Shown: positions 25,064-60,059, counted from the stretch's first letter. The stretch is DNA of 64,000 nucleotides from Bdellovibrionia bacterium (GCA_045805065.1 JBJMMA010000060.1:15462-79461), one strand, 5' to 3'. Notes: generated by a model from the letters alone, not told the origin. Program-made: numbers and translations.

Positions 25064-25187
25064 AAAACCAAACAAGAATAGTTGATAAGATAAAAGACCT
25101 CGCTGCGACTTCCTGTCGCATTCCCATTCGGCATCCTGCCTGGGAACGACTCGGTTTTTATCTTATCGACTATTCTTGTTTGGTTTT
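25064..25187 (+). repeat. copy A of the novel hairpin element family: 58-nt conserved core inside a ~30-bp locus-specific inverted repeat
   Basis: The left arm AACCAAACAAGAATAGTTGATAAGATAAAA pairs with the right arm TTTTATCTTATCGACTATTCTTGTTTGGTT, with one G-U wobble. The core is CCTCGCTGCGACTTCCTGTCGCATTCCCATTCGGCATCCTGCCTGGGAACGACTCGG. No downstream box is present. Confidence 0.7.
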
Positions 25188-25287
25188 GCGTGTGTTTGTC
25201 GGTGAGGGCATGTGTGCTCTGGTGGAGAACGGATTGTGCTCTATTAGGCTAGACAGATTGTCGGCAGGGGGATATTCGCTGCCGCAT

Positions 25288-26115
25288 ATGTCAGTTCTGG
25301 AGTTTGATAACTATCGGCTGTACTTGCGCTCCGTACTTGCTGATCGGGCATCGACAAATCCGAGGTACTCTCTTCGGGCATTCGCGAAGAGTCTCGAGCT
25401 GGCTCCCTCCTATTTATCGGCAGTCATGAATGGAAAGAAATCACTTTCTCCTGAGACTGCTTACGCTGTAGCGGAGAAGCTCAGATTAGATGAACAAGAG
25501 GCAACGTATTTCCGCATCCTGGCTCAGATGGAAGCCACGAAAAATCCTGCTTTGAAAGAGAGCTTGCTTCAGCGAGCTCAGACTCTTGCCCCAAGTGTGG
25601 TTGTGAATGATCTCAGCGTTGATCAGTTCAAAATGATCTCTGACTGGCATCACTACGCCATATTTGCGGCGGTCGATCTCTCTGACATTGAGGCGACGCC
25701 AGAACGGATTGCAAAAATCCTTGGACTAAACCTTGCTGAAGTCCAAGTTGCCGTGGAGCGCATGATCCGATTGGAGATGCTCGAGAAGGACGCAGAAGGG
25801 CGCTTAAAACAAACGATCTCACATTCAAGGATTGTTTCGTTGGCGCCCAACAGGGCAGTGAGAAGCCATCACCGTCAGAACTTGGAAAAAGCGATCGAGA
25901 GTATCGGATTGCAGAGGCCGGATGAAAGATTCATGGGGTCTGAGACCTTTTGTATTGATGAATCACAATTTGAGGAGTTTCAGAAGCTCTGCAACCAGTT
26001 CCTCGACAGCGCGCTGGCTCTCGCGAAGAAAGCGAAGACCAAAAACCAGGTGTACCACTTAGGTGTTCAGTTTTTCAGGTTTTCACAAGAAAAACCAAAG
26101 GAAGAAAAAAAATGA
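25288..26115 (+). CDS. TIGR02147-like putative HTH regulator (paralog 1 of 3)
   Basis: The N-terminus MSVLEFDNYRLYLRSVL parallels MKPFEFNDYRLYL (51586) and MLFEYRDYKKYL (53983). The three proteins are similar throughout (LSxxSHF/SPEx helix, conserved C-terminus). The track ORF starts upstream at 25027 and runs through repeat copy A. An alternative start is at 25207. Confidence 0.6.
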   Translation: MSVLEFDNYRLYLRSVLADRASTNPRYSLRAFAKSLELAPSYLSAVMNGKKSLSPETAYAVAEKLRLDEQEATYFRILAQMEATKNPALKESLLQRAQTLAPSVVVNDLSVDQFKMISDWHHYAIFAAVDLSDIEATPERIAKILGLNLAEVQVAVERMIRLEMLEKDAEGRLKQTISHSRIVSLAPNRAVRSHHRQNLEKAIESIGLQRPDERFMGSETFCIDESQFEEFQKLCNQFLDSALALAKKAKTKNQVYHLGVQFFRFSQEKPKEEKK

Positions 26116-27086
26116 GAAGCATGCAATCAGGCTCAGTCCTTGTAAGTTTGACGTGCGGATTATCACTCATGTTTGCAATTAATGCGATGGCAGGTGGAGG
26201 GGGCGTACGCGGCGGCGGCGGCGATATCTGCGAAGATCGCATCCAGCAGATCCGGGATGATATCAAGTCCTGGATCCATCAAGGTGGCGCGCAGGGATTA
26301 TCACTTCCGCAAGGAGTCTCCGCAGATCGGTATGCCGACCTGATGCTAGATCAAATGAAAACCGCACGCGTGAAATGCGTCGGCGCGGCAGACAAAGGTT
26401 ACCCGGTCGCGATCGGAAGCACGCCAAAGGTTTGCAAGTTCTCAATCGATCAATCGGGCTCTCAGATTACTTGTGACTACATCAAGTTTCTCGCGACTAA
26501 CGAATCGGACCAATACGTTTTGATTCATCATGAGTACGCGGGGCTTGCGGGTGTCGAGGTCCCTAACCAGGGCGATTCCCGCTACGACGTTTCCAATCAG
26601 ATCTCCGCCTATCTTGAAGACCAGGTTGTGAAGAAGCTTGCGGTAAAGCCCGTAACCTCCGAGCTCCAGGTGGGTTCGAGAGTTGTCATCGATGACAATC
26701 AATTTGAGACCAAAACCGGCCAGATTACTTCGATCACTTCCGGAAAGTACACCTATTATCAGGTCAGGCTATCCAATAACTCGGGTAGGGCGGGAGATGA
26801 GCAAATCATTGAGAGAAGTTACATCAAGGCGACCGAAGTCGGCAGTCTGAATGGCGTGAGAAAAGGTCAGAAAGCCATCTGCAGGAATATTTACGACATT
26901 TCCGGCAGCGCGTTTGAAGGCAACGTTGCTCATATTTATTCAAACGGTTTCGTCGAAATCACTATTTCGACCAAGAAGGCCACTTCGGTTACGTCCACTT
27001 CTCAGTTATCTGAAGGACCCCTGTTTTTGTCGTCGGTCCCAGGCGCTTGGGAAATTCCTCGCTTTGGATACAACTGCTCTTATTAA
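26112..27086 (+). CDS. secreted GGGGD-I-C family protein (paralog 1 of 3)
   Basis: Signal peptide MRSMQSGSVLVSLTCGLSLMFAINA, then GGGGVRGGGGDICEDRIQQIRDDIKSWIHQGG and QYVLIHHEYAGLAGVE. It is clearly homologous to the 52780..53730 product and more distantly to the 50560..51411 product. Confidence 0.65.
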   Translation: MRSMQSGSVLVSLTCGLSLMFAINAMAGGGGVRGGGGDICEDRIQQIRDDIKSWIHQGGAQGLSLPQGVSADRYADLMLDQMKTARVKCVGAADKGYPVAIGSTPKVCKFSIDQSGSQITCDYIKFLATNESDQYVLIHHEYAGLAGVEVPNQGDSRYDVSNQISAYLEDQVVKKLAVKPVTSELQVGSRVVIDDNQFETKTGQITSITSGKYTYYQVRLSNNSGRAGDEQIIERSYIKATEVGSLNGVRKGQKAICRNIYDISGSAFEGNVAHIYSNGFVEITISTKKATSVTSTSQLSEGPLFLSSVPGAWEIPRFGYNCSY

Positions 27087-27092
27087 AAATTA

Positions 27093-27221
27093 GAACAAAA
27101 CAATACGAGTAAAGAACAAAGATAAAAGTCCTCGTTGTGACATCCTGTCACATTCCCAGTCGTCTTCCTGACTGGGAACGACTCGGCTTTTATCTTTGTT
27201 CTTTACTCGTATTGTTTTGTT
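27093..27221 (+). repeat. copy B of the hairpin element family: perfect 36-bp inverted repeat around the conserved core
   Basis: GAACAAAACAATACGAGTAAAGAACAAAGATAAAAG at 27093-27128 is exactly complementary to 27186-27221. The core is TCCTCGTTGTGACATCCTGTCACATTCCCAGTCGTCTTCCTGACTGGGAACGACTCGG. It lies between the convergent genes 26112(+) and 27278(-). Confidence 0.75.
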
Positions 27222-27235
27222 CACGTTTGTTAGAC

Positions 27236-27277
27236 GTGACGCGTATGCGCTACAAAAAGGAGGCGGCCACCTTTTGG
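27236..27277 (+). other. conserved 42-nt box GTGACGCGTATGCGCTACAAAAAGGAGGCGGCCACCTTTTGG (copy 1 of 3)
   Basis: Identical at 41 of 42 nt to 50455-50496 and sharing GCGCTACAAAAAGGAGGCGACCACCTTTT with 60087-60116. It abuts the stop codon of the minus-strand gene 27278..28885. Confidence 0.55.
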
Positions 27278-28885
27278 TTACTTCGATTTTTTCTTCACGC
27301 GAATGCCGCCGAATTTTCCGCCTGAAGGCTTACCTTCGTTACGGAAGCTTTTTGGCTTGCCGTAGCTTGGTTTGTCGCCAGATGCGGATCGGCCGCCAAA
27401 CGCAGGCTTTTTGCCTCTCGGACGCTCATCGAAATCTTTTGGTGAAGCTTTTGGATAAGCTGCCTTAGCGGTGAAGGACTTTCCTCCGACAGGCTTCGTG
27501 CTTGGAGCGCTGGCTCCATCGGCCGAGCCACCGACTTGAAGAATATCTCCGCGCCAGACTGGGCCAAGATGGGCGGTGTTGATTCGTCCAGGGCGCTCGG
27601 GTTCGCAAATCAGAACATCACCGGCTTTTGTGAGCGGATCACTGATGACGAGTTTGTGTGTTGGATTGCGCTTTGGAGAACGTTGATCGTTGGATGTGAT
27701 CCAAAGGTAGGAGAACTTCAGCCACAGGCGCTCAGAGCCCAGAGCTTTTGAAAACTCTGCGAACCATCTGCCTGGAACGCGCGTTGGAACGGAGAAGTGG
27801 CAATAATCTTTTCCATAAGAAAGAGGGCAAGTCTCAGCGTGAGGGCAGGGGCCCCAGAGCATGGTTGCCGTTTTCTCGATCGTCTCGGTTTGGAAGAGAC
27901 GGTTTCTTAAACGCGACAGAAACTGAGAAGTGGTTTTCGCTGCAGGCTCAACAAAGAGCACGCCGCCGCCTTGGGCTTTTTCAAGAAGGTTTGCCCAGAT
28001 TGTTTCGATCTTTGGCTTCTTCGTTGTTTCGGCTTCAGTTTCTTCGCCGTCGTAATCTTCATTACCAACTGGACCCTCTCCGCTATCTAAAAGATCGAGT
28101 GGTTCTTCATCTTCACGAGCTTTAAAGCGGTTTGGAAGCGTTTTGGCTTCGTTCATGACATGGCCCAGAAGAATGAGCGACATCGGAGCTTTGAGCTGCG
28201 CGGGCGCATCCCACCAGTTTGCTGTCTGAAGATGAACAGTCACTTTGCCGCGAAGACGTGGGAACTGATCGGAGAGCGCTTGCACGAGCGCTTTTCCGTC
28301 TTCCATGATCGTGCGCTGAGTATCGAACCAATAAAGCTCGATCGGAGGAAAGTCTCCGCCGCGCGCCTGAAGAAGGCGCAATAGAAAACCAATCGATGCA
28401 GTGCCGGGGCCTGCGCCAAGATCCGCGATTCTTAAAACGCCCTGCTTGCGGCCATGCTCAAGCGCTGCTTGAACAGCGGCATTGTGCATTTCAAAAAGCG
28501 AGACGAACTTGGCCATTTGAAGAGGGAGGAAATAAAGAAGGTAAGCCGAGCGAAACTTCGGATGCTGAAAGTAGGCAGGAATCTGCTCGGGGCGCTCTTC
28601 GGTGAAAAGCTCAGAAAGATCTTTCACGCCTTTGGAGAAAAAGCGGACGTCCTCCTTGGCGAACGGTTTATCCTTCCAGCTATCGCGAGGGCTGTAGTGC
28701 TCTTTCACGTAGGCTGGAACCATTTCGTCCACAAACCAGGTCCAGGCGGGGGGGAAATCCAGCTGAGGAGATGCCAGTTTTATGACGCTCAACGGGCGAT
28801 CACTCGACTGGTTTGAGGTTGGACGGGGGGATATCGGCTTAGGCAGGGGGGTTTTTGATCGCATGGTGTATCTTACTTGTCGCAT
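27278..28885 (-). CDS. Rsm22-like SAM-dependent methyltransferase with a Cys cluster and lysine-rich tail
   Basis: 535 aa. The SAM motif VLRIADLGAGPGTAS and the Cys cluster GPCPHAETCPLSYGKDYCHFS resemble the Rsm22/mitoribosomal methyltransferase family. The C-terminal ~90 aa are K/G/P-rich. Confidence 0.65.
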   Translation of the reverse strand: MRQVRYTMRSKTPLPKPISPRPTSNQSSDRPLSVIKLASPQLDFPPAWTWFVDEMVPAYVKEHYSPRDSWKDKPFAKEDVRFFSKGVKDLSELFTEERPEQIPAYFQHPKFRSAYLLYFLPLQMAKFVSLFEMHNAAVQAALEHGRKQGVLRIADLGAGPGTASIGFLLRLLQARGGDFPPIELYWFDTQRTIMEDGKALVQALSDQFPRLRGKVTVHLQTANWWDAPAQLKAPMSLILLGHVMNEAKTLPNRFKAREDEEPLDLLDSGEGPVGNEDYDGEETEAETTKKPKIETIWANLLEKAQGGGVLFVEPAAKTTSQFLSRLRNRLFQTETIEKTATMLWGPCPHAETCPLSYGKDYCHFSVPTRVPGRWFAEFSKALGSERLWLKFSYLWITSNDQRSPKRNPTHKLVISDPLTKAGDVLICEPERPGRINTAHLGPVWRGDILQVGGSADGASAPSTKPVGGKSFTAKAAYPKASPKDFDERPRGKKPAFGGRSASGDKPSYGKPKSFRNEGKPSGGKFGGIRVKKKSK

Positions 28886-28937
28886 ACCTCGTGCTGGAGT
28901 GTCTAGCTGACCGGCGAAAACGTGCTACTCTTTATAT

Positions 28938-29450
28938 ATGAGTTTGAAGGGAAGCCTTAAAGATGTTGGACCGATCGAGCTGAATCTTCCCAAAAGAAGT
29001 TTCTGGCGGGATCGGATTCGACAGATTTGGGCATTTTATTGTCCACTTTGTAACGTTCCAAGACGAGTTCCTTACCAACCGCGACCGGGCTTCAAGCACA
29101 TGGCTCAGGTGGGATTAACGGCGGTCGTTTTTATGCTGGCCACCTGGAGCTGGTTTGAGTGGAAGGGGATTGTCAGCTTCTTTCCTCTTTGGTCCGTTTT
29201 TGAGGTGATCTATCGCGCTCGTGTGCGCGCTGCGTTGGCCTGTGATCGTTGCGGATTTGACCCCTATCTCTACCTGATTGACGTGCCTCGAGCGCGCGAA
29301 GTGGTTGAAAATCATTGGCGAAAAAAGTTTGCTGATAAAGGGATTCCTTACCCATCAAAGCCATCATTAAACCCATCTGGGGCACCGGCAAATGCCAAGC
29401 CTGCAGGGGGAGCGGGCACTAAAAGCGGTTCTCCCGAAATGGTCACTTGA
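28938..29450 (+). CDS. hypothetical membrane protein with a CxxC...CxxC zinc-ribbon-like motif
   Basis: 170 aa, containing CPLCN...CDRCG and one TM helix (VGLTAVVFMLATWSWF). It lies upstream of ssb. Confidence 0.45.
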   Translation: MSLKGSLKDVGPIELNLPKRSFWRDRIRQIWAFYCPLCNVPRRVPYQPRPGFKHMAQVGLTAVVFMLATWSWFEWKGIVSFFPLWSVFEVIYRARVRAALACDRCGFDPYLYLIDVPRAREVVENHWRKKFADKGIPYPSKPSLNPSGAPANAKPAGGAGTKSGSPEMVT

Positions 29451-29483
29451 CAGCTGTTGCTGCGCAACGCTAGACCTTCAGGC

Positions 29484-29999
29484 ATGTCTGTCAATAAAGT
29501 TATTTTGGTGGGGCGCTTGGGGCAGAATCCAGAAGTGCGATACACGCCGTCGGGCGCAGCTGTCGCAAACTTCAGTGTTGCAACCAACGAATCATGGTCC
29601 GATAAGAACGGCCAGAAACAGGAACGTACCGAGTGGCACAAGGTTGTCGTTTGGGGCAAGCTCGCCGAGCTTTGCAATCAGTTCCTCGCTAAGGGTCGCC
29701 AGGTTTATCTCGAAGGTCGCTTGCAGACCCGCCAATGGCAGGACAAGGACGGACAGACCAAGTACACGACCGAAATCCAGGCTCAAACCATTCAGTTCTT
29801 GGGCGGCCAAGGCGCTGAGCGTGGTCCCGGAATGGATCAAAGCATGGGCCAAAGCATGGGCGGCGGTAACAGCGGTTACGGCCAAGGCGGCGGTGGCGGT
29901 TATAACCGCGGAGCCCCACAAGGTGCTGGCCCTTCGGGCCCAGGTCCTCAGTTTGGAGCAGAAGAGCCTTCTTTCACTGAAGACGATATTCCGTTCTGA
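29484..29999 (+). CDS. ssb: single-stranded DNA-binding protein
   Basis: [38 protein letters not shown] is the OB-fold N-terminus. The tail is G/Q-rich and ends with the acidic tip DDIPF. The track ORF opens at an upstream TTG (29457). Confidence 0.85.
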
Positions 30000-30001
30000 A
30001 C

Positions 30002-30739
30002 ATGCGCGCGCTCATTGTCGTTCCTACATATAACGAATTAGAAAACATCCAGAATCTTGCACAATCGGTCATGGCGGTCATCCCACCTAACGTGGACCTC
30101 CTGATTGTGGACGACAATTCTCCTGATGGAACTGGAAAGCTTGCCGATCAGCTTGCTGCACAGGATTCGCGGATTCACGTCCTGCATCGCGCCCGTAAAA
30201 TGGGCCTGGGCACGGCTTATGTGAATGGCTTTAACTGGGGACTTGAGCGGGGCTACGAAGCCTTGATCGAGATGGATGCGGACTTCTCGCACGACCCTAA
30301 GTACCTGCCGCGCATGCTCGAGCTTCTTGAGATCAATGATGTGGTGATCGGCTCCCGTTATGTTCCAGGTGGCGGAACCGTGAACTGGGGAATGGGGCGC
30401 AAAGTCCTGAGCCGTGGCGGAAGCATGTACTCGCGTCTGATCTTGGGCGCGGGCATTCGTGACTTTACCGGTGGCTTCAATGGCTGGCGCCGTAAGGTGA
30501 TCGAATCCGTGGATCTGCCATCGCTTCGATCGGACGGCTATTCCTTTCAGATTGAGCTGAAGTACCGCGCATTTCTCAAAGGCTTCAAAATTACCGAGTT
30601 TCCAATTGTTTTCGAAGATCGGAAAGTCGGGAAGTCAAAAATGCATCGCCGGATCGTGATTGAAGCGCTTCTTCGCGTTTGGGAGTTTCGCTTCAAATCC
30701 CCGTTCCGCCAGGCACTCGTTCAAACTCAGCGTCATTGA
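30002..30739 (+). CDS. GT2 polyprenyl-phosphate glycosyltransferase (Dpm1/ArnC-like; polyprenol-P-mannose or similar synthase)
   Basis: 245 aa. The GT-A signatures are present: VVPTYNELENI, the DXD motif IVDDNSPDGT, and DADFSHDP. Confidence 0.7.
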   Translation: MRALIVVPTYNELENIQNLAQSVMAVIPPNVDLLIVDDNSPDGTGKLADQLAAQDSRIHVLHRARKMGLGTAYVNGFNWGLERGYEALIEMDADFSHDPKYLPRMLELLEINDVVIGSRYVPGGGTVNWGMGRKVLSRGGSMYSRLILGAGIRDFTGGFNGWRRKVIESVDLPSLRSDGYSFQIELKYRAFLKGFKITEFPIVFEDRKVGKSKMHRRIVIEALLRVWEFRFKSPFRQALVQTQRH

Positions 30740-30771
30740 CACTTCGAGGTTTACATCCTTAATATTTAAGG

Positions 30772-31689
30772 ATGACCCGAAAACGTTCTGCTGTGTCCGT
30801 CATCTCAAGTGCGAAGTCCCTGTTTTTGGCGTTGGGGGCTTTGGGAGTAACAACGCTTGCGAATGCGGCCACGCCGTTCATTCCGACTGCGATCCTGGTC
30901 GATAAAAACACGAACCAGCTTCATGTGACTCGCTATGAAAACGGCGAGTATCGCATCCTGAAGACCTATCATGCCACTTTGGGAAAAGTGAAAGGCGATA
31001 AGCAGGACGAAGGGGACCTTAAAACCCCTGAAGGGATCTACACGTTCAAAGCGTTTTTGACGCCGCCATCACTGTCCAAAAAGTTTGGGAAGATGGCTTT
31101 TTACGTCAGCTATCCCAATACGTACGATGAGCTTGCCGGTCACACTGGAAACAACATCATGCTTCATGCGACGGACACGCCCGAGCGTCTGAAGCAGGAG
31201 TTCGATAGCCTGGGTTGTGTCGTGGTGAAGGATCAGGAGATTGCGGAGATCAAGCCTTACATCAAGTTAGGCCTGACGCCGATCTTGATCTTCCCTGAGT
31301 TGACTCCTGAGTACATGAAGCCCGGTCAGGACAATACTCTGGTGAGCTTCTTTAAGAGCTGGATCAAGTCCTGGGAGACGAAGAGCCTGGATGACTATAT
31401 CGCTCACTATCATTCGGACTTCTCGGCTCAGGGCAAGGACAAGGCCGCATGGAGAGCTTTTAAAGCGACTTTGAATAAGAAGTACGCCAGCATCGAGATC
31501 AATCCGGAGAGCGTCCTTTATTACCGCCATCCCAAGTACTCGATGATCACTTTCACCCAGAACTATCGCTCCAAGCTGGTGGGCGGAGGCTGGGGACATC
31601 GCTCGCATGGGACGAAGATTCTCTACATCGCGGAAGAAGCGGGTCAGCCTAAGATCATTGCAGAGACTTTCTCGAATCTGAGTTGGTAA
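30772..31689 (+). CDS. secreted L,D-transpeptidase (YkuD) domain protein
   Basis: Signal peptide. The catalytic block reads NIMLHATDTPERLKQEFDSLGCVVV (H...S.GC). There is a C-terminal extension. Confidence 0.6.
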   Translation: MTRKRSAVSVISSAKSLFLALGALGVTTLANAATPFIPTAILVDKNTNQLHVTRYENGEYRILKTYHATLGKVKGDKQDEGDLKTPEGIYTFKAFLTPPSLSKKFGKMAFYVSYPNTYDELAGHTGNNIMLHATDTPERLKQEFDSLGCVVVKDQEIAEIKPYIKLGLTPILIFPELTPEYMKPGQDNTLVSFFKSWIKSWETKSLDDYIAHYHSDFSAQGKDKAAWRAFKATLNKKYASIEINPESVLYYRHPKYSMITFTQNYRSKLVGGGWGHRSHGTKILYIAEEAGQPKIIAETFSNLSW

Positions 31690-31725
31690 GAGTCGTCCCT
31701 GACTCTCGACCTCATTCAGTTCAGA

Positions 31726-34288: not shown

Positions 34289-34380
34289 GGGCCGGATTTC
34301 TCATGCTGTACTTAATAAGTCAAATATTGAAAAAGCGATTATCGTTAAGGGCTTAGGTGTGGTATTTCCGTAGGACTCGT

Positions 34381-50214: not shown

Positions 50215-50310
50215 AGGGGGGATTTATCGCACAATACGCCGCGCGGCGCAACGGAACCAAAAGGTGGTCGCCTACTTTTGGTAGCGATAGTGCGTCAAGG
50301 TTCTTTATCC

Positions 50311-50440
50311 GAGTAAAACAAAGCGAATAGGGCTCTTTAGCTAAAATCCCTCGTTGCGACTTCCTGTCGCATGCCCATTCGGCATCCTGCCTGGGCACGA
50401 CTCGGTTTTTACCTAAAGAGCCCTATTCGCTTTGTTTAAC
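50311..50440 (+). repeat. copy C of the hairpin element family
   Basis: The arms GAGTAAAACAAAGCGAATAGGGCTCTTTAGCTAAAA and TTTTACCTAAAGAGCCCTATTCGCTTTGTTTAAC pair with one mismatch. The core is TCCCTCGTTGCGACTTCCTGTCGCATGCCCATTCGGCATCCTGCCTGGGCACGACTCGG. Relative to copy A it has a compensatory U-A to G-C change (TTCCCA/TGGGAA becomes TGCCCA/TGGGCA). Confidence 0.75.
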
Positions 50441-50454
50441 CAGGTTCGTTAATT

Positions 50455-50496
50455 GTGACGCGTATGCGCTACAAAAAGGAGGCGACCACCTTTTGG
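50455..50496 (+). other. conserved 42-nt box (copy 2 of 3): GTGACGCGTATGCGCTACAAAAAGGAGGCGACCACCTTTTGG
   Basis: It has a one-nucleotide difference from the 27236 copy. Confidence 0.55.
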
Positions 50497-51585: not shown

Positions 51586-52380
51586 ATGAAGCCCTTTGAG
51601 TTTAATGACTACAGACTCTACCTCGATGCTCGAATCAAAGCGGAGTGGGGCGCGATCACTCGTGTAGCCAAGGCGGCAAATTGCCAGCGATCGTATTTGT
51701 CGAGAGCGCTTAAGGGAGAGGTTCTTCTCACTCCCGATCATCTGCATGGCATCTGTGAGTTTTGGCGTCTCTCAGAAGAGGAGACCGAATATCTCATGCT
51801 GCTTCTTGAAAAAGCGCGCGCCTCCACGCGCTCTTATCGTGAGCGAGTGGAGAGAAAGCTTTCGCTGCTTCTGCGTGAGCAGGAAGATCTCGCAAAGCGA
51901 TTGCATACGCCAAGAATTCCCACGACGGATCGGGAGCTTCTTTACTATTCAGCGTGGCATTGGATCATGATTCACATGAGTACGTCGGTTCCTTCGCTTC
52001 AGACTGAAAAAGCGATGTCTCAGCATCTGAATCTTTCGCCTGAGCTCGTTCGATTCGCGCTGACTCAGCTTGCGGAATGGGGGCTTGTCAAACGGGAAGG
52101 TGATCGATGGAAATTTGCCTCAGGCAATATTCATCTTCCAAAAAACTCGCCCCTCATTGGCCAGCACCACGCGCATTTCAGACAGAAGGCGGTTGAGGAT
52201 TCACTTCTGCCTTATGGAGATGGGCTACATTACTCACAGCTTCAAGCGATGGAAGAGGAGACTTTCCGCGAGATCAAAGCGCTCTTTTTGCGATCCATTG
52301 ATGATTCTTTGAAGCTTGCGGATCCAGCGAAAGAAGATAGGCTTGTTGCCGTGAGTCTGGATGTTTTTCGGGTTTATTGA
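51586..52380 (+). CDS. TIGR02147-like putative HTH regulator (paralog 2 of 3)
   Basis: MKPFEFNDYRLYLDARIKAEWGAITRVAKAANCQRSYLSRALKGEVLLTPDHLHGICEFWRLSEEETEYLMLL parallels the other two paralogs. A -10-like TATATT lies 8 nt upstream of the ATG with no SD (possibly leaderless). A GTCAATA direct repeat lies upstream. Confidence 0.65.
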   Translation: MKPFEFNDYRLYLDARIKAEWGAITRVAKAANCQRSYLSRALKGEVLLTPDHLHGICEFWRLSEEETEYLMLLLEKARASTRSYRERVERKLSLLLREQEDLAKRLHTPRIPTTDRELLYYSAWHWIMIHMSTSVPSLQTEKAMSQHLNLSPELVRFALTQLAEWGLVKREGDRWKFASGNIHLPKNSPLIGQHHAHFRQKAVEDSLLPYGDGLHYSQLQAMEEETFREIKALFLRSIDDSLKLADPAKEDRLVAVSLDVFRVY

Positions 52381-52433
52381 AAACGATAGTCGCCGGAAAC
52401 TTCACAGGAGCTCCCGGCGACTGCTTTTCATTC

Positions 52434-52736
52434 TCAATCAATGCAGGCAAAGCAGACTGCGTATCGTGCTGAAGCTCTGCCAAGATAAGCTTCAAGCGAA
52501 ACTTGGTAACAGCTGTATCCAGCTTCTTGAGCGGCTTTGCGGCAGCCCATCGCGGAGTTCGGACCGTTAGGAAGCAAGTCGCAGTTTCCGTTTGGGTACA
52601 AGTCCTGGATCAGATCGCCAATGAAATTTCGATGTTCCACAAGATGCGTGCTGCGGTTGCAGGATGTGATGACGTCATCTGCGTGTGCGAGGGTTGAGGC
52701 CAGGGTCAAACTAAGAATCATAACTAAGTTTTTCAT
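52434..52736 (-). CDS. small secreted cysteine-rich protein (100 aa, 7 Cys after signal-peptide cleavage)
   Basis: The internal ATG at 52736 gives MKNLVMILSLTLASTLAHA, a signal peptide, followed by a Cys-rich mature part. It is co-transcribed downstream of the 52780..53730 gene. Confidence 0.5.
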   Translation of the reverse strand: MKNLVMILSLTLASTLAHADDVITSCNRSTHLVEHRNFIGDLIQDLYPNGNCDLLPNGPNSAMGCRKAAQEAGYSCYQVSLEAYLGRASARYAVCFACID

Positions 52737-52779
52737 ATCTATTCCTGATTTAAGCTTTGAAAGGTTTTGCAGCGTGAAT

Positions 52780-53730
52780 TTAGTCATTCGCGTAAGCAAT
52801 GCAGCGAACTGAGTTCCGGTCTTCATAAGAAGTCTGGTATATTTTTCCGCTATCACCGCTGAGAACAAGTAAATGCATCCAGGCGCCTGTGTAAGGAGAG
52901 TTGCTCCAAACGTATTCGTTTTCCATATGTGGAAGGACTTCATGGAGGCCGTGGCCTTCGGCGTGTTTAAGATTCTCAGCCGATGGCATGATGCTGCCAA
53001 CCTTGCGGCAAATATCTTCTGCATAAACATAGGAGTCGACTCCCAGTTTATCGCTCCAGATGATCCCGTTTGGATCCTTCCATGCTTCGCCAAAACCCTC
53101 GTAATCGACGCGCTCAAAAATTCCTTGAGCTGAGGTGATGCACTTTGTTCCAACGCGAATCGGTTTTGTGTGATCGAGCTCAGAGCAATCTACAGGCGCT
53201 TGCGGGCGGGGGGCGATCGCGAGTTTCTTCACAAGCTCATCGACAAGAAACGCGGAGAGCTGGTTAGAGACGCTGTAGTCAGAATTCTCTCCCACGTTGA
53301 TCTCAATGCCTGTCAGTCCTGCGTATTCGTGATGAACGAGGACGTACTGTGAGGATTCGTCCGTATCGAGAAATCTTTTTGCGTTACAGGTGATTCTGGA
53401 TGCGCCGCCTGCGACGAAGTTCTTGCAGGTTTTTTCCGCGCCTTCGACCATCACGGGTTGGTCGGTGCAGCTGATTTTGGCTTCTGCGATCGCCTTCAGC
53501 ATCAGCTCATTGTAGCGTTGCGTTCGTGTCCCGGAAGATAGCTCAAGCCCGGACGAGCCGTTCTTATTAATCCAGGATGCGATATCGTCTCGCACCGTTT
53601 TAAAGCGATTTTCACAGATATCTCCTCCGCCACCTGATCCTGCACCGGCAGAGGCGTTGGCCGAGTGGAAAGTGAGCAGAGATACGGCCAGAGTGGCCAA
53701 CAGTGATGAGAATGGCGAGCGTAACACCAT
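52780..53730 (-). CDS. secreted GGGGD-I-C family protein (paralog 3 of 3)
   Basis: Signal peptide, then GAGSGGGGDICENRFKTVRDDIASWINKNGS and QYVLVHHEYAGLTGIE, a close paralog of the 26112..27086 product. Confidence 0.65.
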   Translation of the reverse strand: MVLRSPFSSLLATLAVSLLTFHSANASAGAGSGGGGDICENRFKTVRDDIASWINKNGSSGLELSSGTRTQRYNELMLKAIAEAKISCTDQPVMVEGAEKTCKNFVAGGASRITCNAKRFLDTDESSQYVLVHHEYAGLTGIEINVGENSDYSVSNQLSAFLVDELVKKLAIAPRPQAPVDCSELDHTKPIRVGTKCITSAQGIFERVDYEGFGEAWKDPNGIIWSDKLGVDSYVYAEDICRKVGSIMPSAENLKHAEGHGLHEVLPHMENEYVWSNSPYTGAWMHLLVLSGDSGKIYQTSYEDRNSVRCIAYAND

Positions 53731-53982
53731 AGGGACTCCTATTTATTTTCGCCGCAGCGGTAGGGTTGTATTATTGTTGACTATTGAAGTCAACAAATGG
53801 GTTCTGGTTTAATTTAGCCGTAGTTTTAAAGAGTTAACCTCGCCGTCACCCTCCCTTAGCTTGCTGCGGCTATTTGAGGGTGACGACTTGAGCGGTGTTT
53901 TAACGCGGTGCATGCGTTTGAGATAGATATGTTTTATAAAAATACATTCGAAAAACTGACTATTTACTCAATAATTGAGGAA

Positions 53983-54804
53983 ATGCTCTTTGAATATCGC
54001 GACTATAAAAAATATCTCAATGCGGCTCTCTCAACGGGAGGGGCTTCGCGTGGAAGTCGCACTCGCCTGGCCGAGGCGCTTCGATGTCAGACCGCATTTA
54101 TCTCGCATGTGCTGAATGGCAACTCGCATTTCAGTCTTGAGCATGCGGTGGTGATCTCGCGCTTTCTCAATCACACGCCGGATGAATCGAAGTATTTCAT
54201 TCTCCTCGTTAGCCTGGGGCGTGCCGGATCCAAAGAGCTTGAGGATCATTTCAAGGCGCAGATCGATGAGATGCAGAAAAAGCGTGCGCAGATCAAAGAG
54301 CGCATTACTGTCGATCGCGCGCTGACGGCAGAAGCCCAGATTCGATACTACAGTGCCTGGTATTACTCGGCGATTCACGTGGCGACGTCAATCTCTGCGC
54401 TGCAGACGCGAGATGCGCTTGCCTCAGCGTTGAATCTTTCGCCAGCTCTGGTGAATGAATGCCTGGAGTTTCTGGCTGAACACGGCCTCGTGGTCGCGAA
54501 GAAAGACAGATATGTGATTGGTCCGGTGCGGATGCATCTCGGCGCAGATTCGCCGATGATCTCAAGGCTTCACGCCAACTGGCGCCTGCAAGCCATGCAG
54601 TCGATGGAACGCCCGGTGGCTAGAAATACAAGTGATCTGCATTACTCCACTGTCCTTACGATTTCGCACGAAGATGCAAAGCGGGTGAGAGAAGCGTTGC
54701 TTCGTGCAGTCGATGAAACCGAAAAGATCTTCCGGCCATCACCCGAAGAAGTCGTCTACTGCGTCGGAATGGACTGGTTTCGTGTCTCGCGAGATGGAAG
54801 CTGA
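53983..54804 (+). CDS. TIGR02147-like putative HTH regulator (paralog 3 of 3)
   Basis: The start is chosen at MLFEYRDYKKYL by paralog alignment, with GAGGAA just upstream. The track ORF opens at 53908. Confidence 0.6.
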   Translation: MLFEYRDYKKYLNAALSTGGASRGSRTRLAEALRCQTAFISHVLNGNSHFSLEHAVVISRFLNHTPDESKYFILLVSLGRAGSKELEDHFKAQIDEMQKKRAQIKERITVDRALTAEAQIRYYSAWYYSAIHVATSISALQTRDALASALNLSPALVNECLEFLAEHGLVVAKKDRYVIGPVRMHLGADSPMISRLHANWRLQAMQSMERPVARNTSDLHYSTVLTISHEDAKRVREALLRAVDETEKIFRPSPEEVVYCVGMDWFRVSRDGS

Positions 54805-54805
54805 A

Positions 54806-54868
54806 CCGAACAAATCATAAATAAGAACCTCAGTTAAAAACCGAGGTTCTTATTTATGATTTGTTCGG
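54806..54868. terminator. perfect 26-bp inverted repeat hairpin (bidirectional terminator between convergent genes)
   Basis: CCGAACAAATCATAAATAAGAACCTC, loop AGTTAAAAACC, GAGGTTCTTATTTATGATTTGTTCGG. The stop codons of both flanking genes lie within 6 nt of the stem. Confidence 0.65.
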
Positions 54869-54874
54869 CTCTGG

Positions 54875-55402
54875 TTATTTGCAGGGGCTGACGACAAAAC
54901 CGCCGATGAAGGAGCCGAGTACTTTGCCGTTCTTATCATTTGCTTCGATGATTGCGCTCATTCCGTAAACGGTTGCGGCGCCGACTTGGTAGACGCGAAC
55001 GGAGCGCACTGCCTTGAGGTCGATGCCTGCGCTGAAAAATCCGTTCATGGCTGGGTCGTTCACAAGACTGTAAGCATGGACGAGCAGTCTTTCGCCGAGA
55101 TTAAGCTGAGCGAGATACTCATCCGAAGGATCGTTGAGGTCTTGGTCAATAGGGTGAGTGATCAGGTGGAAGGACATTTCAGCGGTGTCTTCGTAGCTCG
55201 ATGTTTTTCCATTCACGGTCTGAGTGACTTGAGCGCGAAGGCCGCCATGGTCCTTGTATACGGTCATCGTCGTTGGAACGATCTCACCGGATCCATCCAT
55301 TTTCTTCAGATCTGAAGAGCACGTCTTCACGGGAAGTGCAGTCGCTCCCAAAGCTTGAACAGACAAAAGGACGCTCAGCGTAGAAATGAGAAAAGTCTTC
55401 AT
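54875..55402 (-). CDS. small secreted protein, member of a 4-paralog family (N-terminal KTC, C-terminal PCK)
   Basis: Signal peptide MKTFLISTLSVLLSVQALGA. It is 55-60% identical by eye to the 58052..58573 product. Confidence 0.6.
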   Translation of the reverse strand: MKTFLISTLSVLLSVQALGATALPVKTCSSDLKKMDGSGEIVPTTMTVYKDHGGLRAQVTQTVNGKTSSYEDTAEMSFHLITHPIDQDLNDPSDEYLAQLNLGERLLVHAYSLVNDPAMNGFFSAGIDLKAVRSVRVYQVGAATVYGMSAIIEANDKNGKVLGSFIGGFVVSPCK

Positions 55403-55504
55403 AGAACCTGCTTTCGTTGCGCGTTCTATCGACAGCCCCCGGGCCTGTCAAATTAATTGAAAGGGGAGACTCGGTCTGGAATGTCCTGTGACCTGTAAGG
55501 AGCG

Positions 55505-56197
55505 CTAATACGGATCGACCACGAACATTCGGCCTGTTTTGGCCTCTACGATTACATTGTCTGGCTTGTGTAAAATCATGAAGCGCTGACCGTTCTCCTG
55601 GTAGGGAGAGTAGCAAGAGTAGAGAGAGTTGCGAGTTCTGTGGAGGGGTCTGATGGAGTGAGGGTCGGCTCTCATGGCGGCGTAGACGCTTTTAACGAAT
55701 TGATTCCATCTTCGAGTAAGTTCGACTCGCTCAGAATGGGAAAGGTTCGGATCTTCAATCGCTTTCTCGAGCGTTTCTCCTTCGATGTTTGGAAGTTTCA
55801 TCGAGCGCTTTCCAAGAAGCTCTGGATGAACGATCTCAATTCCATCTGTGTGAGGCATTAACTTGTGAAGTTTTGAGAATGCCAATGCGTCCCACGTTCG
55901 CTGCCCAGAATCGAAATACTCTTTCAGAACATACGGAGGTTTGCCGTTGGAAGGGTGTACGCGGTAGACAGTGCCGCCATGCTCTCCTTCTCCCAAAAAC
56001 AAATAGCGAGAAGTGGGATCGTAAAGCTCAAGGCCCGAGACCTTGCTACGAGTGGCGACCTTGCCGAGATGAGTTTTAATTTTTAACTGAATGCATTGGA
56101 ACGTTGATCCAAAAACCGAGGCAGGACCTGAGAGCGCAATCAGCACACACAAAAGCTGTAGCAGGGATGAAAAAAGTTTTCGTTCCATATTTCTCAA
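55505..56197 (-). CDS. secreted hypothetical protein with a kinase-catalytic-loop-like motif (LHKPDNVIV...VVDPY)
   Basis: Signal peptide. The motif MILHKPDNVIVEAKTGRMFVVDPY resembles HxDxKPxNhLh...DFG of protein-kinase-like folds. Weak; family not recognised. Confidence 0.5.
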   Translation of the reverse strand: MRNMERKLFSSLLQLLCVLIALSGPASVFGSTFQCIQLKIKTHLGKVATRSKVSGLELYDPTSRYLFLGEGEHGGTVYRVHPSNGKPPYVLKEYFDSGQRTWDALAFSKLHKLMPHTDGIEIVHPELLGKRSMKLPNIEGETLEKAIEDPNLSHSERVELTRRWNQFVKSVYAAMRADPHSIRPLHRTRNSLYSCYSPYQENGQRFMILHKPDNVIVEAKTGRMFVVDPY

Positions 56198-56500
56198 TCA
56201 GGATAACTTACGACTGAGTAAAAAGATCGAGTCAAAGAATTGGCTTTTTGGCACCAGCTGCTGGGTTCATTTGAGCACCAGGAGCAAAACGCATTATCAG
56301 ATCATTGTTTAAGGTCTTTCTGATGATTTGTGCGTGATCTCATCGACATTACTTCTTGCGTCAAGGTGTGTGGCACGTGAGGCACCGGCCTTGCTCAGTG
56401 CCCCAGACACTCGGTGCTGTTTGCCGAAAACCCCTGGGATTAATAATCCGTTCATGGGCGTGAGCCCGTGAGCATTACTTTGACTCGAAGGAGTATGAAA

Positions 56501-57121
56501 ATGAAGAAGCTCAATTTGGCGATGATGGCAGTGTCTGCGATGGCCTCAATGGTTTCTCTCGCGCATGCGGATGATATCAGTCTTGGTATGCCTGGATACG
56601 GCGGAACGGGTTGTCCTGATGGAACTGTTTCAGCCACGCTCAGCCCGGATTCCAAAACATTGAGCCTTATTTTCGACCAGTACGTTGCTGAGGCCGGTGG
56701 CACCACAGGTCGCCGTCTGGATCGCAAGAACTGCCAGATCGCGATCCCTGTGCACGTCCCACAAGGCTACAGCTTCTCCATCATTGATATGGATTATCGC
56801 GGATACAACAGTCTGCCAGCAGGCGCGAGCTCGCAATTTAATGTCGAATATTTCCTGGCTTATCCGGGCTCTCCAGCTCGCGGTTCTCGATACTCGAAGA
56901 GCTTCACTGGTCCGTTGGATCAGGAATACCTCGTTCAAAATCAGCTGGGACTTGAAGCTACGGTCTGGTCTCCTTGTGGAACCGACGTGAACCTGAGAAC
57001 GACCACTTCCATGGTCGCTACATCCAATCGTCGCGGCGATCAGACGATGGCAACCGTGGACAGCATCGATGCCAAGGCAGGGGTGATCTACTCGCTGCAG
57101 TGGCGTAAGTGCAGCCGGTAA
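56501..57121 (+). CDS. secreted protein, tandem paralog 1 of a GTGCPxGTVSATLSPD family
   Basis: AAGGAG lies 8 nt upstream of ATG 56501. Signal peptide MKKLNLAMMAVSAMASMVSLAHA, then GTGCPDGTVSATLSPDSKTLSLIFDQY. Confidence 0.6.
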   Translation: MKKLNLAMMAVSAMASMVSLAHADDISLGMPGYGGTGCPDGTVSATLSPDSKTLSLIFDQYVAEAGGTTGRRLDRKNCQIAIPVHVPQGYSFSIIDMDYRGYNSLPAGASSQFNVEYFLAYPGSPARGSRYSKSFTGPLDQEYLVQNQLGLEATVWSPCGTDVNLRTTTSMVATSNRRGDQTMATVDSIDAKAGVIYSLQWRKCSR

Positions 57122-57209
57122 TTCGCAAACACAATTAACGAACCGATCACGATCCCAAAGCCTGGTGCATAGGGAAGCTTGAGTTTGGCTTGAGTTTGAA
57201 GGAGGAATA

Positions 57210-58031
57210 ATGAAACGAGCTTTAGAGATGGCGAATGCGGCAGTCATGATTCTTCTCACTCAAGTTTCCCTTGCCTGGGCGGATGATCCAGTCGTGCAAC
57301 TCAGTACTCCCACATACGATGGTACGGGATGTCCCTCTGGCACTGTTTCGGCGACGCTCTCGCCAGATGCCACAGCTTTAAGTTTAATTTTTGATAAGTT
57401 TTCAGTGGAGACGGGCAAGGGCGCAAGCAATATGCCCGTGGATCAGAAGAGCTGTACCTTCCAAGTTCCGATGACTGTTCCTGCTGGCTACGCCGTCACG
57501 GTCATGCGTGTGGATTATCGCGGATATCATTCTTTGCCTGCAGGATCAGTTGCAACTTTTCGATCCTCTTTCGGGTTCTTAGACGGTGCGCGTGATCACC
57601 GGCTCGGAAACAACCTTCTTCAACTTTTCCGTGGACCAACGGATGGAGACTTTTTATTTTCTCAAAACGCTACTTTCAGTGAATGGTCCGCGTGTGGTGG
57701 TAGTGTCCAGTTGCGACTCAACACGGCTCTGGGGCTGCAAGGCAGCCCGCGCGGAGAGCTTGCCACGGTGTCTATTGACTCGGCTGATATGACGGGTGAG
57801 CGCCAGTTGCAGTATGTCCTGGCGTGGAGAAAATGCGACGGAACTGTCTTGCGTCCGGGGCAACCAGGACATCCAGTCGGTCCTCTCGGACCAGGACACC
57901 CGATCGGTCCGCATGGTGGTCCACATGGAGATGGAAGGCCAGGATTGGGCGGACATGGCCCTGACCAAATGTCAGGTCGAGGCGCGCCAGACCGAGGCGG
58001 AATGGGCCGCGGCGGGCCGATACGCAGATGA
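57210..58031 (+). CDS. secreted protein, tandem paralog 2 of the GTGCPxGTVSATLSPD family, with a Gly/Pro/His-rich C-terminal tail
   Basis: RBS GGAGGAATA. GTGCPSGTVSATLSPDATALSLIFDKF is present. The C-terminal PGHPVGPLGPGHPIGPHGGPHGDG is low-complexity. Confidence 0.6.
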   Translation: MKRALEMANAAVMILLTQVSLAWADDPVVQLSTPTYDGTGCPSGTVSATLSPDATALSLIFDKFSVETGKGASNMPVDQKSCTFQVPMTVPAGYAVTVMRVDYRGYHSLPAGSVATFRSSFGFLDGARDHRLGNNLLQLFRGPTDGDFLFSQNATFSEWSACGGSVQLRLNTALGLQGSPRGELATVSIDSADMTGERQLQYVLAWRKCDGTVLRPGQPGHPVGPLGPGHPIGPHGGPHGDGRPGLGGHGPDQMSGRGAPDRGGMGRGGPIRR

Positions 58032-58051
58032 TCCAATCGGTTGCTGTAAAA

Positions 58052-58573
58052 TTATTTACAAGGGCTGACGATCAAGCCGCCGATGAAGGATCCCATGACA
58101 GCGCCCGAATCGTTCATTGCTTCGATGATGGCGGTGGTGCCGAATTCGGAGAATGCGCCGATTTGAAAGACCCGGACGGATTGAACTGCTTTGAGATCCA
58201 GACCCGCGCTGAAAACGCCTTTGAGTTCAGGATCGGTAGTGACTGCATAAGCATGAACGAGAAGTTCTTCACCCAAGTTGAGTTTTGCTCGATCTGCTGG
58301 GGTGATTCGATCAATGCGATGGTTGATCAAGTAGAAGGATTCCTGAGCTTCGTCTTCGTACGAGGTCGTTTGCCCATGGATCGTCTGGGTGACTTTTCCA
58401 CGAACTTCGCCTTGTTCTGAATAAACTGTCATTGTGGTGGGAATGACTTCGCCCGATCCGTCGAGCTTCTTGAAATCAGAGGAGCAGGACTTGAGCGGAA
58501 ATGAAGTCGCTCCCATGGCTTGAGCCGAGAGAAGAACTCCGAGTAACGACACGGTAAACGACTTCATATTCAA
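58052..58573 (-). CDS. small secreted protein, KTC...PCK family paralog
   Basis: Signal peptide SLLGVLLSAQAMGA. The C-terminus is GGLIVSPCK. Confidence 0.6.
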   Translation of the reverse strand: MNMKSFTVSLLGVLLSAQAMGATSFPLKSCSSDFKKLDGSGEVIPTTMTVYSEQGEVRGKVTQTIHGQTTSYEDEAQESFYLINHRIDRITPADRAKLNLGEELLVHAYAVTTDPELKGVFSAGLDLKAVQSVRVFQIGAFSEFGTTAIIEAMNDSGAVMGSFIGGLIVSPCK

Positions 58574-58591
58574 CCTGCTTATTGACTGGGA

Positions 58592-59128
58592 TTATTTACA
58601 AGGGGCGAGTGACAACATGACCATGAAGTAAGATCCGAGGCTCTTTCCCTTTTTATTGTAAGCTTCAAAAATCGCCGTTCCATCATCGTCACCGAATTTG
58701 TAGACCGTGACAGAGCGTACATCGTTCACGTCATAGCTGAGCTCGGACTTAACAACGGAGAGTTCCGCATCTTTAAGCTCTGAGGCCATGAAGAGCAGCA
58801 TTTCGCCTTCATTATATTTGCTTTCGATATCCTCTGCTGACTCAGCGTCTGTGTCCGAAGACGAAGACATTTCTTTGAGTAGATTTGGCCTGACCTTAAA
58901 TTTCTGAATTTTCACTTTCTCTTCTTCGGGGGCCACGGGCTTTCCATCATTCATCCCCGATACTTTGGCGATGACTGAGCCATTGTTTTTATAAACTTCG
59001 GCCTGAAGCAAGTACGGGGCTTTGCCGTCCTCGAGTTTGAATTCAGCCGTACACGTCTTAATTGGAGTCGCTGCCATGGCTTGAGCGGAGAGGAGAAGGG
59101 ATAGAATCGAAAAAGATAGAGTCTTCAT
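58592..59128 (-). CDS. small secreted protein, KTC...PCK family paralog (divergent, acidic insert)
   Basis: Signal peptide ILSLLLSAQAMA. The C-terminus is LSLAPCK. Confidence 0.6.
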   Translation of the reverse strand: MKTLSFSILSLLLSAQAMAATPIKTCTAEFKLEDGKAPYLLQAEVYKNNGSVIAKVSGMNDGKPVAPEEEKVKIQKFKVRPNLLKEMSSSSDTDAESAEDIESKYNEGEMLLFMASELKDAELSVVKSELSYDVNDVRSVTVYKFGDDDGTAIFEAYNKKGKSLGSYFMVMLSLAPCK

Positions 59129-59161
59129 AAATGCATTTCCTACTTTTGTACGCGTTAAACC

Positions 59162-59701
59162 TTATTTGCAGGGGACGGCGACATCTCCGCCTACGAAAGT
59201 TCCAAGGAGCTTGCCGGACTCATCATACGCGTCGATGATCGAGACAATTCCCAGCTGAGTCATTGGTCCGATGCGATAGGCCTTCACGGAGCGAATCGCA
59301 TTCAGGTCCACGCCGGCGCCAGGGCTGAGTCCCTTGTCCACTTCGCTCCTCAACATGGCTTTCGCAATGAGCTCTTCTCCCTTGTTCAGGTGGAGCTTGT
59401 CCGCGCCTTCGCGCTCGCTATCGTCTGCGTCGTATCCATTCTCAGTCAGCAATGCCAGGCCGGCTCTAATTTCATACTTGGAGATGCTGACATAATCCTC
59501 ACTGCTCGTTGTTTGCCCGCGAACGGTTTCGGTAATGATCACCGAGCCGTCCTCGTCCTTTAGTATTTCAAACTTTACCGAGGCATACGAACTGGAGCCT
59601 TCGTCCACCGAAGCAGTGCAAGTTTTGAACGGCGCTGGAAAGGCTGCCATTGCCTGAGCGGAGAGGAGAAGAGTCAGTGCGGAAAGAGATAGAGCTTTCA
59701 T
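59162..59701 (-). CDS. small secreted protein, KTC...PCK family paralog
   Basis: Signal peptide LTLLLSAQAMA. The C-terminus is GGDVAVPCK. Confidence 0.6.
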   Translation of the reverse strand: MKALSLSALTLLLSAQAMAAFPAPFKTCTASVDEGSSSYASVKFEILKDEDGSVIITETVRGQTTSSEDYVSISKYEIRAGLALLTENGYDADDSEREGADKLHLNKGEELIAKAMLRSEVDKGLSPGAGVDLNAIRSVKAYRIGPMTQLGIVSIIDAYDESGKLLGTFVGGDVAVPCK

Positions 59702-59939
59702 AATTTCACGGCCTACTTTCTAAGCGGCTTTATATAGGCGCCATGGAATATAGTCAACTAAATTAGTAAGGTATTATGAGAGCACGAAGTGGGTAGGCCG
59801 ACAGTGCCAGGTTTAACTTTTTTTACAGGTACTTAAGTTGAGCTGAACGATGCGGGAGGAGTCCGTGTGACCAACGGCAGGCTCCACTGGCGCCTCTCGG
59901 TTTGGTAGTTCAAACAACAGTAAATATCGAGAATGAGGA

Positions 59940-60059
59940 AAGCAAAGAGAGCTGAGAAAAGAGATAAAAACCGAGTCCTTCCCAGGCAGGATGCCGTATG
60001 GGAAGGTGACAGGATGTCACAACGAGGGCTTTTATCTCTTTTCTCAGCTCTCTTTGCTT
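59940..60059 (+). repeat. copy D of the hairpin element family, with the core inverted relative to copies A-C
   Basis: The arms AAGCAAAGAGAGCTGAGAAAAGAGATAAAAA and TTTTTATCTCTTTTCTCAGCTCTCTTTGCTT form a perfect 31-bp stem. The core CCGAGTCCTTCCCAGGCAGGATGCCGTATGGGAAGGTGACAGGATGTCACAACGAGGG is the reverse complement of the A/B/C core consensus. The downstream box is still in + orientation. Confidence 0.75.

Follow-up and report, generated by a model that had tools for sequence, protein, structure and literature searches.

The window analysed here is the 64-kb stretch JBJMMA010000060.1:15462-79461 of the Bdellovibrionia bacterium assembly GCA_045805065.1, and positions are given in the numbering of the whole window. 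It contains four copies, A to D, of a composite palindromic element and one relative of it that lacks the core. The central unit of the element is ~125–135 bp long and consists of AT-rich arms of 32–38 bp, which are exact Watson-Crick inverted repeats, with a 57-nt asymmetric centre between them. The full composite unit is a ~240-bp palindrome in which only the central 32–38 bp per arm are perfectly complementary (in copy C, 50257-50496), and many copies are bracketed by a small A-tract/U-tract hairpin, designated m2. Orthologous loci of close relatives were fetched via members of 90%-identity protein clusters, and more distant loci were added from relatives with 69–89% RsmB identity or 81% identity in cystathionine beta-synthase (CBS); the loci of relatives carry the numbers L018 to L042. 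A profile search and a covariance model, R1, were run over 288 kb, and the eight distinct full copies recovered were aligned almost without gaps (alignment A2). As judged from these comparisons, rates and pair types show the perfection of the stem to be the work of arm-to-arm copying, likely by template switching, and the outer arm box, the inner box and the centre are shown to be under sequence constraint; the element itself would most likely act in cis, as a terminator or insulator at gene boundaries.

Copy A (25064..25187, + strand) has arms at 25064-25096 and 25156-25187 and a 57-nt core at 25098-25154, scored 123.5 bits to R1 and has no m2 hairpin on either side. Upstream, 13 nt separate its start from the hairpin that terminates a conserved non-coding block; downstream, a DUF4423 gene has its ATG (25288) 100 nt beyond the end of the copy. 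Copy B (27093..27275, + strand; arms 27093-27128 and 27187-27222, core 27130-27186, m2 27247-27275; 145.6 bits) begins 6 nt past the stop codon of a 324-aa gene, and its m2 hairpin is 2 nt from the stop codon of the convergent Rsm22 gene. Copy C (50257..50496, + strand; arms 50311-50347 and 50407-50440, core 50349-50405) is a complete composite palindrome with m2 in reverse at 50259-50287 and forward at 50466-50494, and is located between a terminated gene and the start of the CBS gene, with ~43 nt from m2 to the ATG. Copy D (59939..60116, − strand; arms 59939-59972 and 60027-60060, core 59971-60027, m2 60088-60116; 138.4 bits) is placed with m2 5 nt past the DUF1318 stop codon. The core-less relative (54798..54876, no strand) is a ~28-bp hairpin whose arms, CCGAACAAATCA...AATAAGAACCTC, are of the family type and enclose a 7-nt loop; it scored 41.8 bits to R1 and takes up precisely the space that separates two convergent stop codons. 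Its apex, CCTCAG-TTAAAAA-CCGAGG, resembles an arm plus the first core bases, folded on itself.

All four copies named in a preliminary description of the window were present between genes, as reported there, and the limits of the central units (25064-25187, 27093-27222, 50311-50440 and 59939-60060) agreed with the coordinates first given to within 1 nt. A degenerate pattern of 24 nt from the 5′ half of the core matched these four sites and no others, D on the − strand and the rest on the + strand, against a chance expectation of 0.00 (100 shuffles of the window); with R1 scores of 123–146 bits on the eight full copies, the repeat family is real. When inverted repeats were searched for, the family arms were the longest hairpins in the window, with complementarities of 97% over 32 nt in A, 100% over 36 nt in B and 97% over 34 nt in D, while the extended palindrome arm of copy C was 93 nt long and 78% complementary. 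Each window copy folds into a long stem, a three-way junction and two small hairpins, with z = -12 to -19, and the quality of the fold is about equal on both strands.

Apart from the four window copies, full copies were found in L033 (C1, 9771-9906, orthologous to C; E1, 5661-5794) and L036 (C2, 8006-8137, orthologous to C; D2, 4712-4845, orthologous to D), and identical copies recur in other samples. E1 follows the L033 DUF4423 gene, a 92.6% identical orthologue of the gene at the core-less hairpin. Site C is kept in all three lineages and site D in the window and L036; copy B is confined to the window, and copy A persists as half-deleted remnants, with the 3′ half lost, in two lineages, L032 and L040-L042. 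These losses are ordinary deletions, and a short TGT repeat is shared at the junctions. The expectation that copies exist in related Bdellovibrionia genomes was thus borne out by the covariance-model scan, and no copies were found by the profile and R1 searches in more distant relatives, at 81–89% protein identity or lower; as far as we can see, the family is confined to one narrow clade. Two core patterns were also run against GTDB species genomes, JGI metagenome contigs and IMG/VR, giving 17 matches, all due to chance; this negative is weak, since the JGI copies of L036-L038 match the scanned pattern yet were not returned, so that their contigs must lie outside the scanned sets. BLAST of the 240-bp unit against plasmids and phages returned no match, a spurious-ORF (open reading frame) search of 5.8 billion proteins with the core translation aligned from eight copies returned nothing at E<=10, and nothing was found in the literature on TIGR02147 or Bdellovibrio palindromic repeats. 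The same element occurs at L033:5700-5757 and L034:6-63 with a one-base difference in hairpin 1, GCGCC (pair broken) in the former and GCGAC in the latter, which is either an unmirrored population polymorphism or an assembly error.

The alignment resolved each arm into an outer box, (C)GAGCAAAACAAAG, a hypervariable middle of ~14 bp and an inner box, AGATAAAAG/CTTTTATCT. The mid-arm is wholly different between loci, but the outer box (~14 nt) and the inner box (9 nt) are shared among copies, which corrects the earlier statement that the arms differ at every locus except in their innermost part. A further proposal had been that flanking DNA was copied into the arms. Arms of different copies, and those of orthologues, are homologous to each other, and in ~350 kb of compared sequence they matched nothing but themselves; both an origin from local flanks and a role as guide or target were rejected on these grounds. 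Outside the arms, a variable spacer of ~12 nt is followed by TAGCGCAYRCGCGTCA and then by the m2 hairpin, CCAAAAGG-TGGTCGCCT-CCTTTTGG, which is present on both sides at C, C1, C2 and D2 and on one side at B, D and E1. m2 also forms a repeat of its own: it generally flanks the main element and starts 2–5 nt after stop codons, is found alone at L033:1020-1042, after a small Cys-rich ORF, and occurs as a variant with an extra GC-rich hairpin inserted at L032:14946-14961; an m2-related sequence, GGCAGGCTCCACTGGCGCCTCTCGGTTTGGTAG, lies at 59879-59912 of the window.

Within the centre, TCCTG occurs twice, 24 nt apart and once per hairpin loop, so that one strand shows TCCT in its loops and the opposite strand AGGA, each element having two AGGA loops, on that strand only. 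The reverse strand of the core reads GACAGGAWGUC and GGCAGGAUGCC, with GGA in the hairpin loops. The two core hairpins share G.C.TCCTG.C and are direct, not inverted, with respect to each other. The loops are kept in nearly all copies, including the divergent L033 variant, and the Y-shaped fold is common to all centre variants, among them the divergent L033 type and D2. The hairpin 1 variants GCGAC/GTCGC and GTGAC/GTCAC, and the variants of hairpin 2, read as they had been claimed.

On alignment A2, 95.4% of the cells of the consensus structure were paired, double-sided changes were present in 25 of the 52 pairs, and none of 500 shuffles reached any of five covariation measures; when partner columns were slid as a control, pairing fell to 39–48%. 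Checked in this way, the covariation of the preliminary description has overwhelming statistical support, and the conclusion drawn from it there, that a secondary structure is under selection, is not supported as far as RNA is concerned, because mirrored changes occur at the neutral rate and without an excess of G-U pairs. Arm cells (columns 9-39) comprised 230 Watson-Crick pairs, 3 G-U pairs and 6 mismatches. G-U pairs therefore made up one-third of the exceptions, approximately as expected of random single substitutions by our own estimate; they are not enriched in the arms, and there is no sign of wobble tolerance of the RNA-helix type. Between orthologous arms (C/C1/C2 and D/D2; the pairs share site-specific outer arms and are thus true orthologues), both sides had changed at 6–9 of 34 pairs (18–26%) and one side only at 2–7 of 34, and four-fold-degenerate divergence in the adjacent CBS gene of the same genomes was 0.21–0.25. 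A mirrored-change rate equal to the neutral per-site rate, with no G-U excess, argues for arm-to-arm copying and not for selection at the RNA level. Compensatory evolution under selection should be much slower or pass through many mismatched intermediates, and independent drift would produce fewer than one complementary double change per comparison. Some mirrored changes span runs of bases, as with AAAG/CTTT in D and TTTA/TAAA in D2.

The pattern matches the model of replication template switching, which is known to bring inverted repeats to perfection in proteobacteria and to create or maintain hairpins, with changes that look compensatory (PMC5941160, PMC8794818, PMC8604942). Applied to this family, a mutation in one arm would be either erased or copied to the other arm, with equal probability and at the DNA level, likely by template switching during replication or by gene conversion within the palindrome, and the unconstrained middle of the stem would keep its perfect pairing even as it drifts at the neutral rate. 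Small hairpins could be made or perfected by this process as well, and the centre could be deleted when an arm folds back onto itself, as may have happened at the core-less hairpin (54798-54876). Hairpin 1 of B and D is a perfect GTGACA-TCC-TGTCAC; because copying can act on the small core hairpins too, the C-G to T-A switch in hairpin 1 is not independent evidence for RNA. Four compensatory changes considered in hairpin 2 of L033 were rejected, since homology alignment reduced them to one clear compensation and a helix shift of one position.

The centre evolved differently from the stem. Between the window and L036, C and C2 differed at 3/58 and D and D2 at 6/58 centre positions (9/116 in total), compared with 47/220 neutral sites (Fisher's exact test, p = 0.001); divergence of the centres at these sites is thus 2–4 times slower than at neutral sites. 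Paralogues with mid-arms saturated by change still conserve both boxes, inner and outer. The L033 copies C1 and E1, despite unrelated arms, differ at 2/58 centre positions, and the orthologous centres of C and C1 differ at 14/58; since C1 and E1 are nearly identical and C and C1 have diverged, the centre can apparently be copied or homogenised between loci independently of the arms. It is probable that the conserved centre binds some factor.

The orientation of the element relative to neighbouring genes is mixed, with A, B and D in sense and C and E antisense, and relative to each other A and B are direct and C and D inverted. GC skew is positive in each 4-kb bin of window positions 1-64000, which places the whole window on one replichore with the + strand leading, and three cores run one way and one the opposite way. 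Every element site coincides with a change in gene content (synteny breakpoint) between close relatives, and copies border two variable islands on both sides, rsmB..Rsm22 and DUF1318..CBS. The rsmB..Rsm22 interval contains a DUF4423 gene and the 324-aa gene in the window, two such pairs plus a beta-lactamase gene in L032, two pairs in L040, beta-lactamase only in L018, and TetR, MMPL and DUF1302 genes in L025; the L031 contig ends early, and the start of the downstream gene suggests beta-lactamase only, as in L018. The DUF1318..CBS interval is likewise variable between relatives, and at the D site of L035 an ordinary bidirectional terminator-like hairpin stands between convergent genes instead. 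These intervals also vary in the element-free relatives L018, L025 and L035, so the element is not required for the variability.

The gene pairs of the islands, each a DUF4423 gene (TIGR02147-type, helix-turn-helix) with a gene for an uncharacterised protein of 280–330 aa, were located at 25288-27086, 51586-52380 and 53908-54804 of the window and at L032:11485-14944, L040:11816-15590 and L033:5867-8698. They are present in differing numbers in close relatives, as diverged paralogues of 55–80% identity, and resemble a cassette-like expanding family. Upstream of copy A, the 750-bp leader that had been assigned to the adjacent regulator proved to be a separately conserved non-coding block. It extends over ~500 nt after rsmB (24560-25060) and is conserved in six lineages, down to 69% RsmB identity, with equivalents at L018:11300-11810 and L031:2170-2650 and in L032, L040 and L025. 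The block holds an invariant sigma-54-type box, CTGGCACGccggCTGCAAT (~24884-24902), followed by ~150 nt that hardly vary and close with the hairpin GGTGGCTCCC-GAAA-GGGAGCCACC (25027-25050); it gave no Rfam match even at E<=5, and no covariation is visible in it because it is too conserved. The block may represent a small RNA that is sigma-54-dependent and has its enhancer sites upstream.

We consider the family to be a lineage-restricted composite palindromic intergenic repeat of the REP/ERIC/Correia-like kind, most likely a terminator or insulator in cis, and would assign this reading a probability of roughly 55%. The element would act symmetrically on both strands, as a hairpin at the boundaries of genes and islands. 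A transcript of either strand would present an A-rich arm, a GC-rich branched hairpin and a U-rich run, which is the layout of a bidirectional terminator, insulator or 3′-end protector. We infer such a role from the anatomy, the position at gene ends, the lack of orientation bias, the terminator-like flags and the replacement in L035, and among the roles first suggested, that of terminator or insulator best fits the anatomy. In all four window copies, a terminator scan flagged the TCCT strand at the 3′ hairpin of the core with its T-run, and it also flagged the core-less hairpin; on the opposite strand of the copies, the branched stem is followed by CUUUUAUCU, which the scan did not flag. B, D, E1 and the core-less hairpin lie closely behind stop codons, and C is also directly upstream of a gene start. 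A palindrome of this length would be fragile as well, in keeping with the synteny breakpoints at which the element lies and with the partial deletions that it has often undergone.

Several observations weigh against a cis-acting boundary element of this type. Both the interruption of the U-run and the branching of the terminator stem are atypical. Copy C together with m2 ends only ~43 nt before the CBS start codon. Strong termination at this point would call for a promoter within the unit or right behind it, but no such promoter was detected; inside the unit, no convincing sigma-70 or sigma-54 promoter was found by scan or by eye. A plain terminator also leaves unexplained both a specific, conserved 57-nt centre and the near-identity of the C1 and E1 centres beside the divergence of C from C1. 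The rate arguments, finally, rest on small numbers, eight distinct full copies from three close lineages.

The near-identity of the C1 and E1 centres speaks for a reading of the family as a non-autonomous mobile or recombinogenic DNA element, which we think unlikely. Its folded centre would be recognised as single-stranded DNA by a remotely encoded transposase or recombinase (IS200/IS605-, RAYT- or integron-like), and either the centre would move between hairpins or the bordered islands would exchange gene cargo. Copies at both borders of two islands whose cargo differs between close relatives, the variation of presence between lineages and the G.C.TCCTG.C shared by both core hairpins are consistent with this. 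However, the element has no defined termini, and in none of the eight copies are the arms or the 240-bp unit bordered by a direct repeat that could be a target-site duplication. No transposase or recombinase domain was detected in the 20 ORFs scanned in and beside the islands, R boxes of the attC type are absent, and the islands vary also where the element is lacking (L018, L025 and L035). The losses are ordinary deletions with the TGT repeat at their junctions, no clean empty site was found, absences coinciding with different neighbours or partial deletions, and the direct arrangement of A and B beside the inverted arrangement of C and D leaves no consistent end polarity.

The kept loops bear on a further proposal, that the family is a structured small RNA acting through its two apical loops, either with the AGGA-loop strand binding and titrating CsrA in the manner of a miniature CsrB/RsmZ or with the UCCU-loop strand pairing with Shine-Dalgarno sequences, the long perfect stem serving in both versions as an RNase III processing signal. 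We regard this as improbable. In its favour are the conservation of the TCCT/AGGA loops with GGA in the reverse-strand hairpin loops, the purifying selection on the centre, the retention of the Y fold although hairpin 2 has been rebuilt in L033, and a CsrA that is present and functional in B. bacteriovorus, where its targets are unknown (PMC13443453). Set against these, an element has just two GGA sites, no sigma-70-like promoter was found beside any copy in the promoter scan, gene-relative orientation is mixed with both strands folding equally well, and copies are readily lost, site A being half-deleted in two lineages and B present in the window only. The G-U pairs of the centre weakly favour the UCCU strand and not the GGA strand, and covariation, being explained by DNA-level copying, provides no argument for RNA. 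The whole window gave 0 Rfam matches at gathering scores, in agreement with the claim that the family is undescribed among RNA families, and over the stretch containing A and B nothing family-specific, CsrB/Rsm models included, was returned at E<=5; the only match at this permissive setting was a generic long-hairpin one, to the model of a plant miRNA precursor. The window is also free of tRNA and tmRNA genes. The likeness to CsrA-binding loops that had been pointed out comes down to the two GGA loops on one strand, and the lack of a promoter, the inconsistent orientation and the lack of a CsrB/Rsm match count against it; the CsrA-sponge idea is only a resemblance.

Also improbable is a reading in which the Y centre is a functional module recognised in single-stranded form, as a CsrA- or ribosome-binding-site-binding RNA or as a folded-DNA site at which DUF4423-regulator cassettes are swapped. 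The module would sit on a self-repairing palindrome whose stem is free to drift, and in the folded-DNA version a putative recombinase could act at the island borders; in the RNA version, if true, it would be the first Csr-type decoy outside Gammaproteobacteria. The view that the element is functionless palindromic DNA kept by template-switch repair, with its centre conserved by gene conversion from copy to copy, fits the frequent loss and decay, the narrow taxonomic range (none in relatives at 81–89% protein identity or lower) and the apparently homogenised L033 centres, but is very improbable, as conversion between copies does not slow divergence between species and yet the C/C2 and D/D2 centres are slow (p = 0.001), the boxes are conserved among paralogues with saturated mid-arms, and C and D are kept in the window and L036, with C in all three lineages.

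Twenty-five doubly substituted pairs that beat every shuffle would normally be taken as proof of a functional RNA, and here rates and pair types point to copying of DNA. Screens that rank candidates by covariation, following R-scape-style logic, will be misled by such palindromes, and the main value of the family is as a clear natural example of overwhelming covariation that does not demonstrate a functional RNA. The family also marks the borders of variable islands in an uncultured, predator-related Bdellovibrionia lineage, and could serve as a natural system for the study of palindrome maintenance, fragility and boundary function.

Several known kinds of element were compared with the family, and classical MITEs, integron attC sites and REPINs were rejected as its identity. 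It is not a classical MITE, as the common parts of the arms are limited to the outer box of ~14 nt and the inner box of 9 nt, and the mid-arm differs completely between loci. Nor is it an integron attC site: its ends, GAGCAAAAC...GTTTTGCTC, are not RYYYAAC/GTTRRRY, it is the centre and not the ends that is conserved, and no integrase was present among the ORFs scanned in and beside the islands. With REP/BIME elements and the RAYT-associated REPINs it has in common a mosaic of small intergenic palindromes, hairpin doublets, compensated stem changes and lineage-specific families; in REPINs, however, the REP sequences that form the arms are conserved and the spacer varies, the reverse of the conserved centre and hypervariable mid-arms seen here, and the two core hairpins of the family are direct rather than inverted. 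CsrB and RsmX/Y/Z are similar in that short hairpins of one strand hold GGA in their loops, and CsrA is encoded in the host phylum, but these RNAs carry 5–20 sites and not two, and the family matches no such model, is strand-symmetric, occurs in either orientation and has no promoter or defined terminator of its own that we could find.

Bidirectional intrinsic terminators resemble the family in a layout of A-tract, GC-rich structure and U-tract that could be read from either strand, and in being sited at gene 3′ ends or between convergent genes. The family differs from them in its branched stem, in A/U-arm pairing at least 30 bp longer than needed, and in its specific 57-nt sequence, which is conserved and repeated. 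Template-switched inverted repeats are alike in their exact Watson-Crick arms, in mirrored multi-base changes and in one apparent fold-back that deleted the spacer (54798-54876); template switching is a mutational process and not an element family, and accounts for the arms, but neither for the constraint on the centre nor for the boxes that the copies share.

Closest in kind, along with REP/BIME, are the Correia elements (CREE/NEMIS) of Neisseria and the ERIC/IRU elements of enterobacteria, which are palindromic intergenic repeats of ~100–160 bp with an asymmetric central segment. Both are transcribed within neighbouring mRNAs, fold into long hairpins, affect termination, processing and stability, and occur at variable loci; their terminal inverted repeats are alike in all copies. 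The present family is likewise intergenic, ~100–160 bp long, folded into a long hairpin and repeated in the genome, and is set beside them by description, as like in kind only, with no claim of sequence homology. It differs in having no TA target duplication, in its hypervariable mid-arms with the centre as the most conserved part, and in its very narrow range. It is a new, narrowly distributed intergenic repeat of a known general kind, with an unusual layout in which a conserved centre is carried on a drifting stem.

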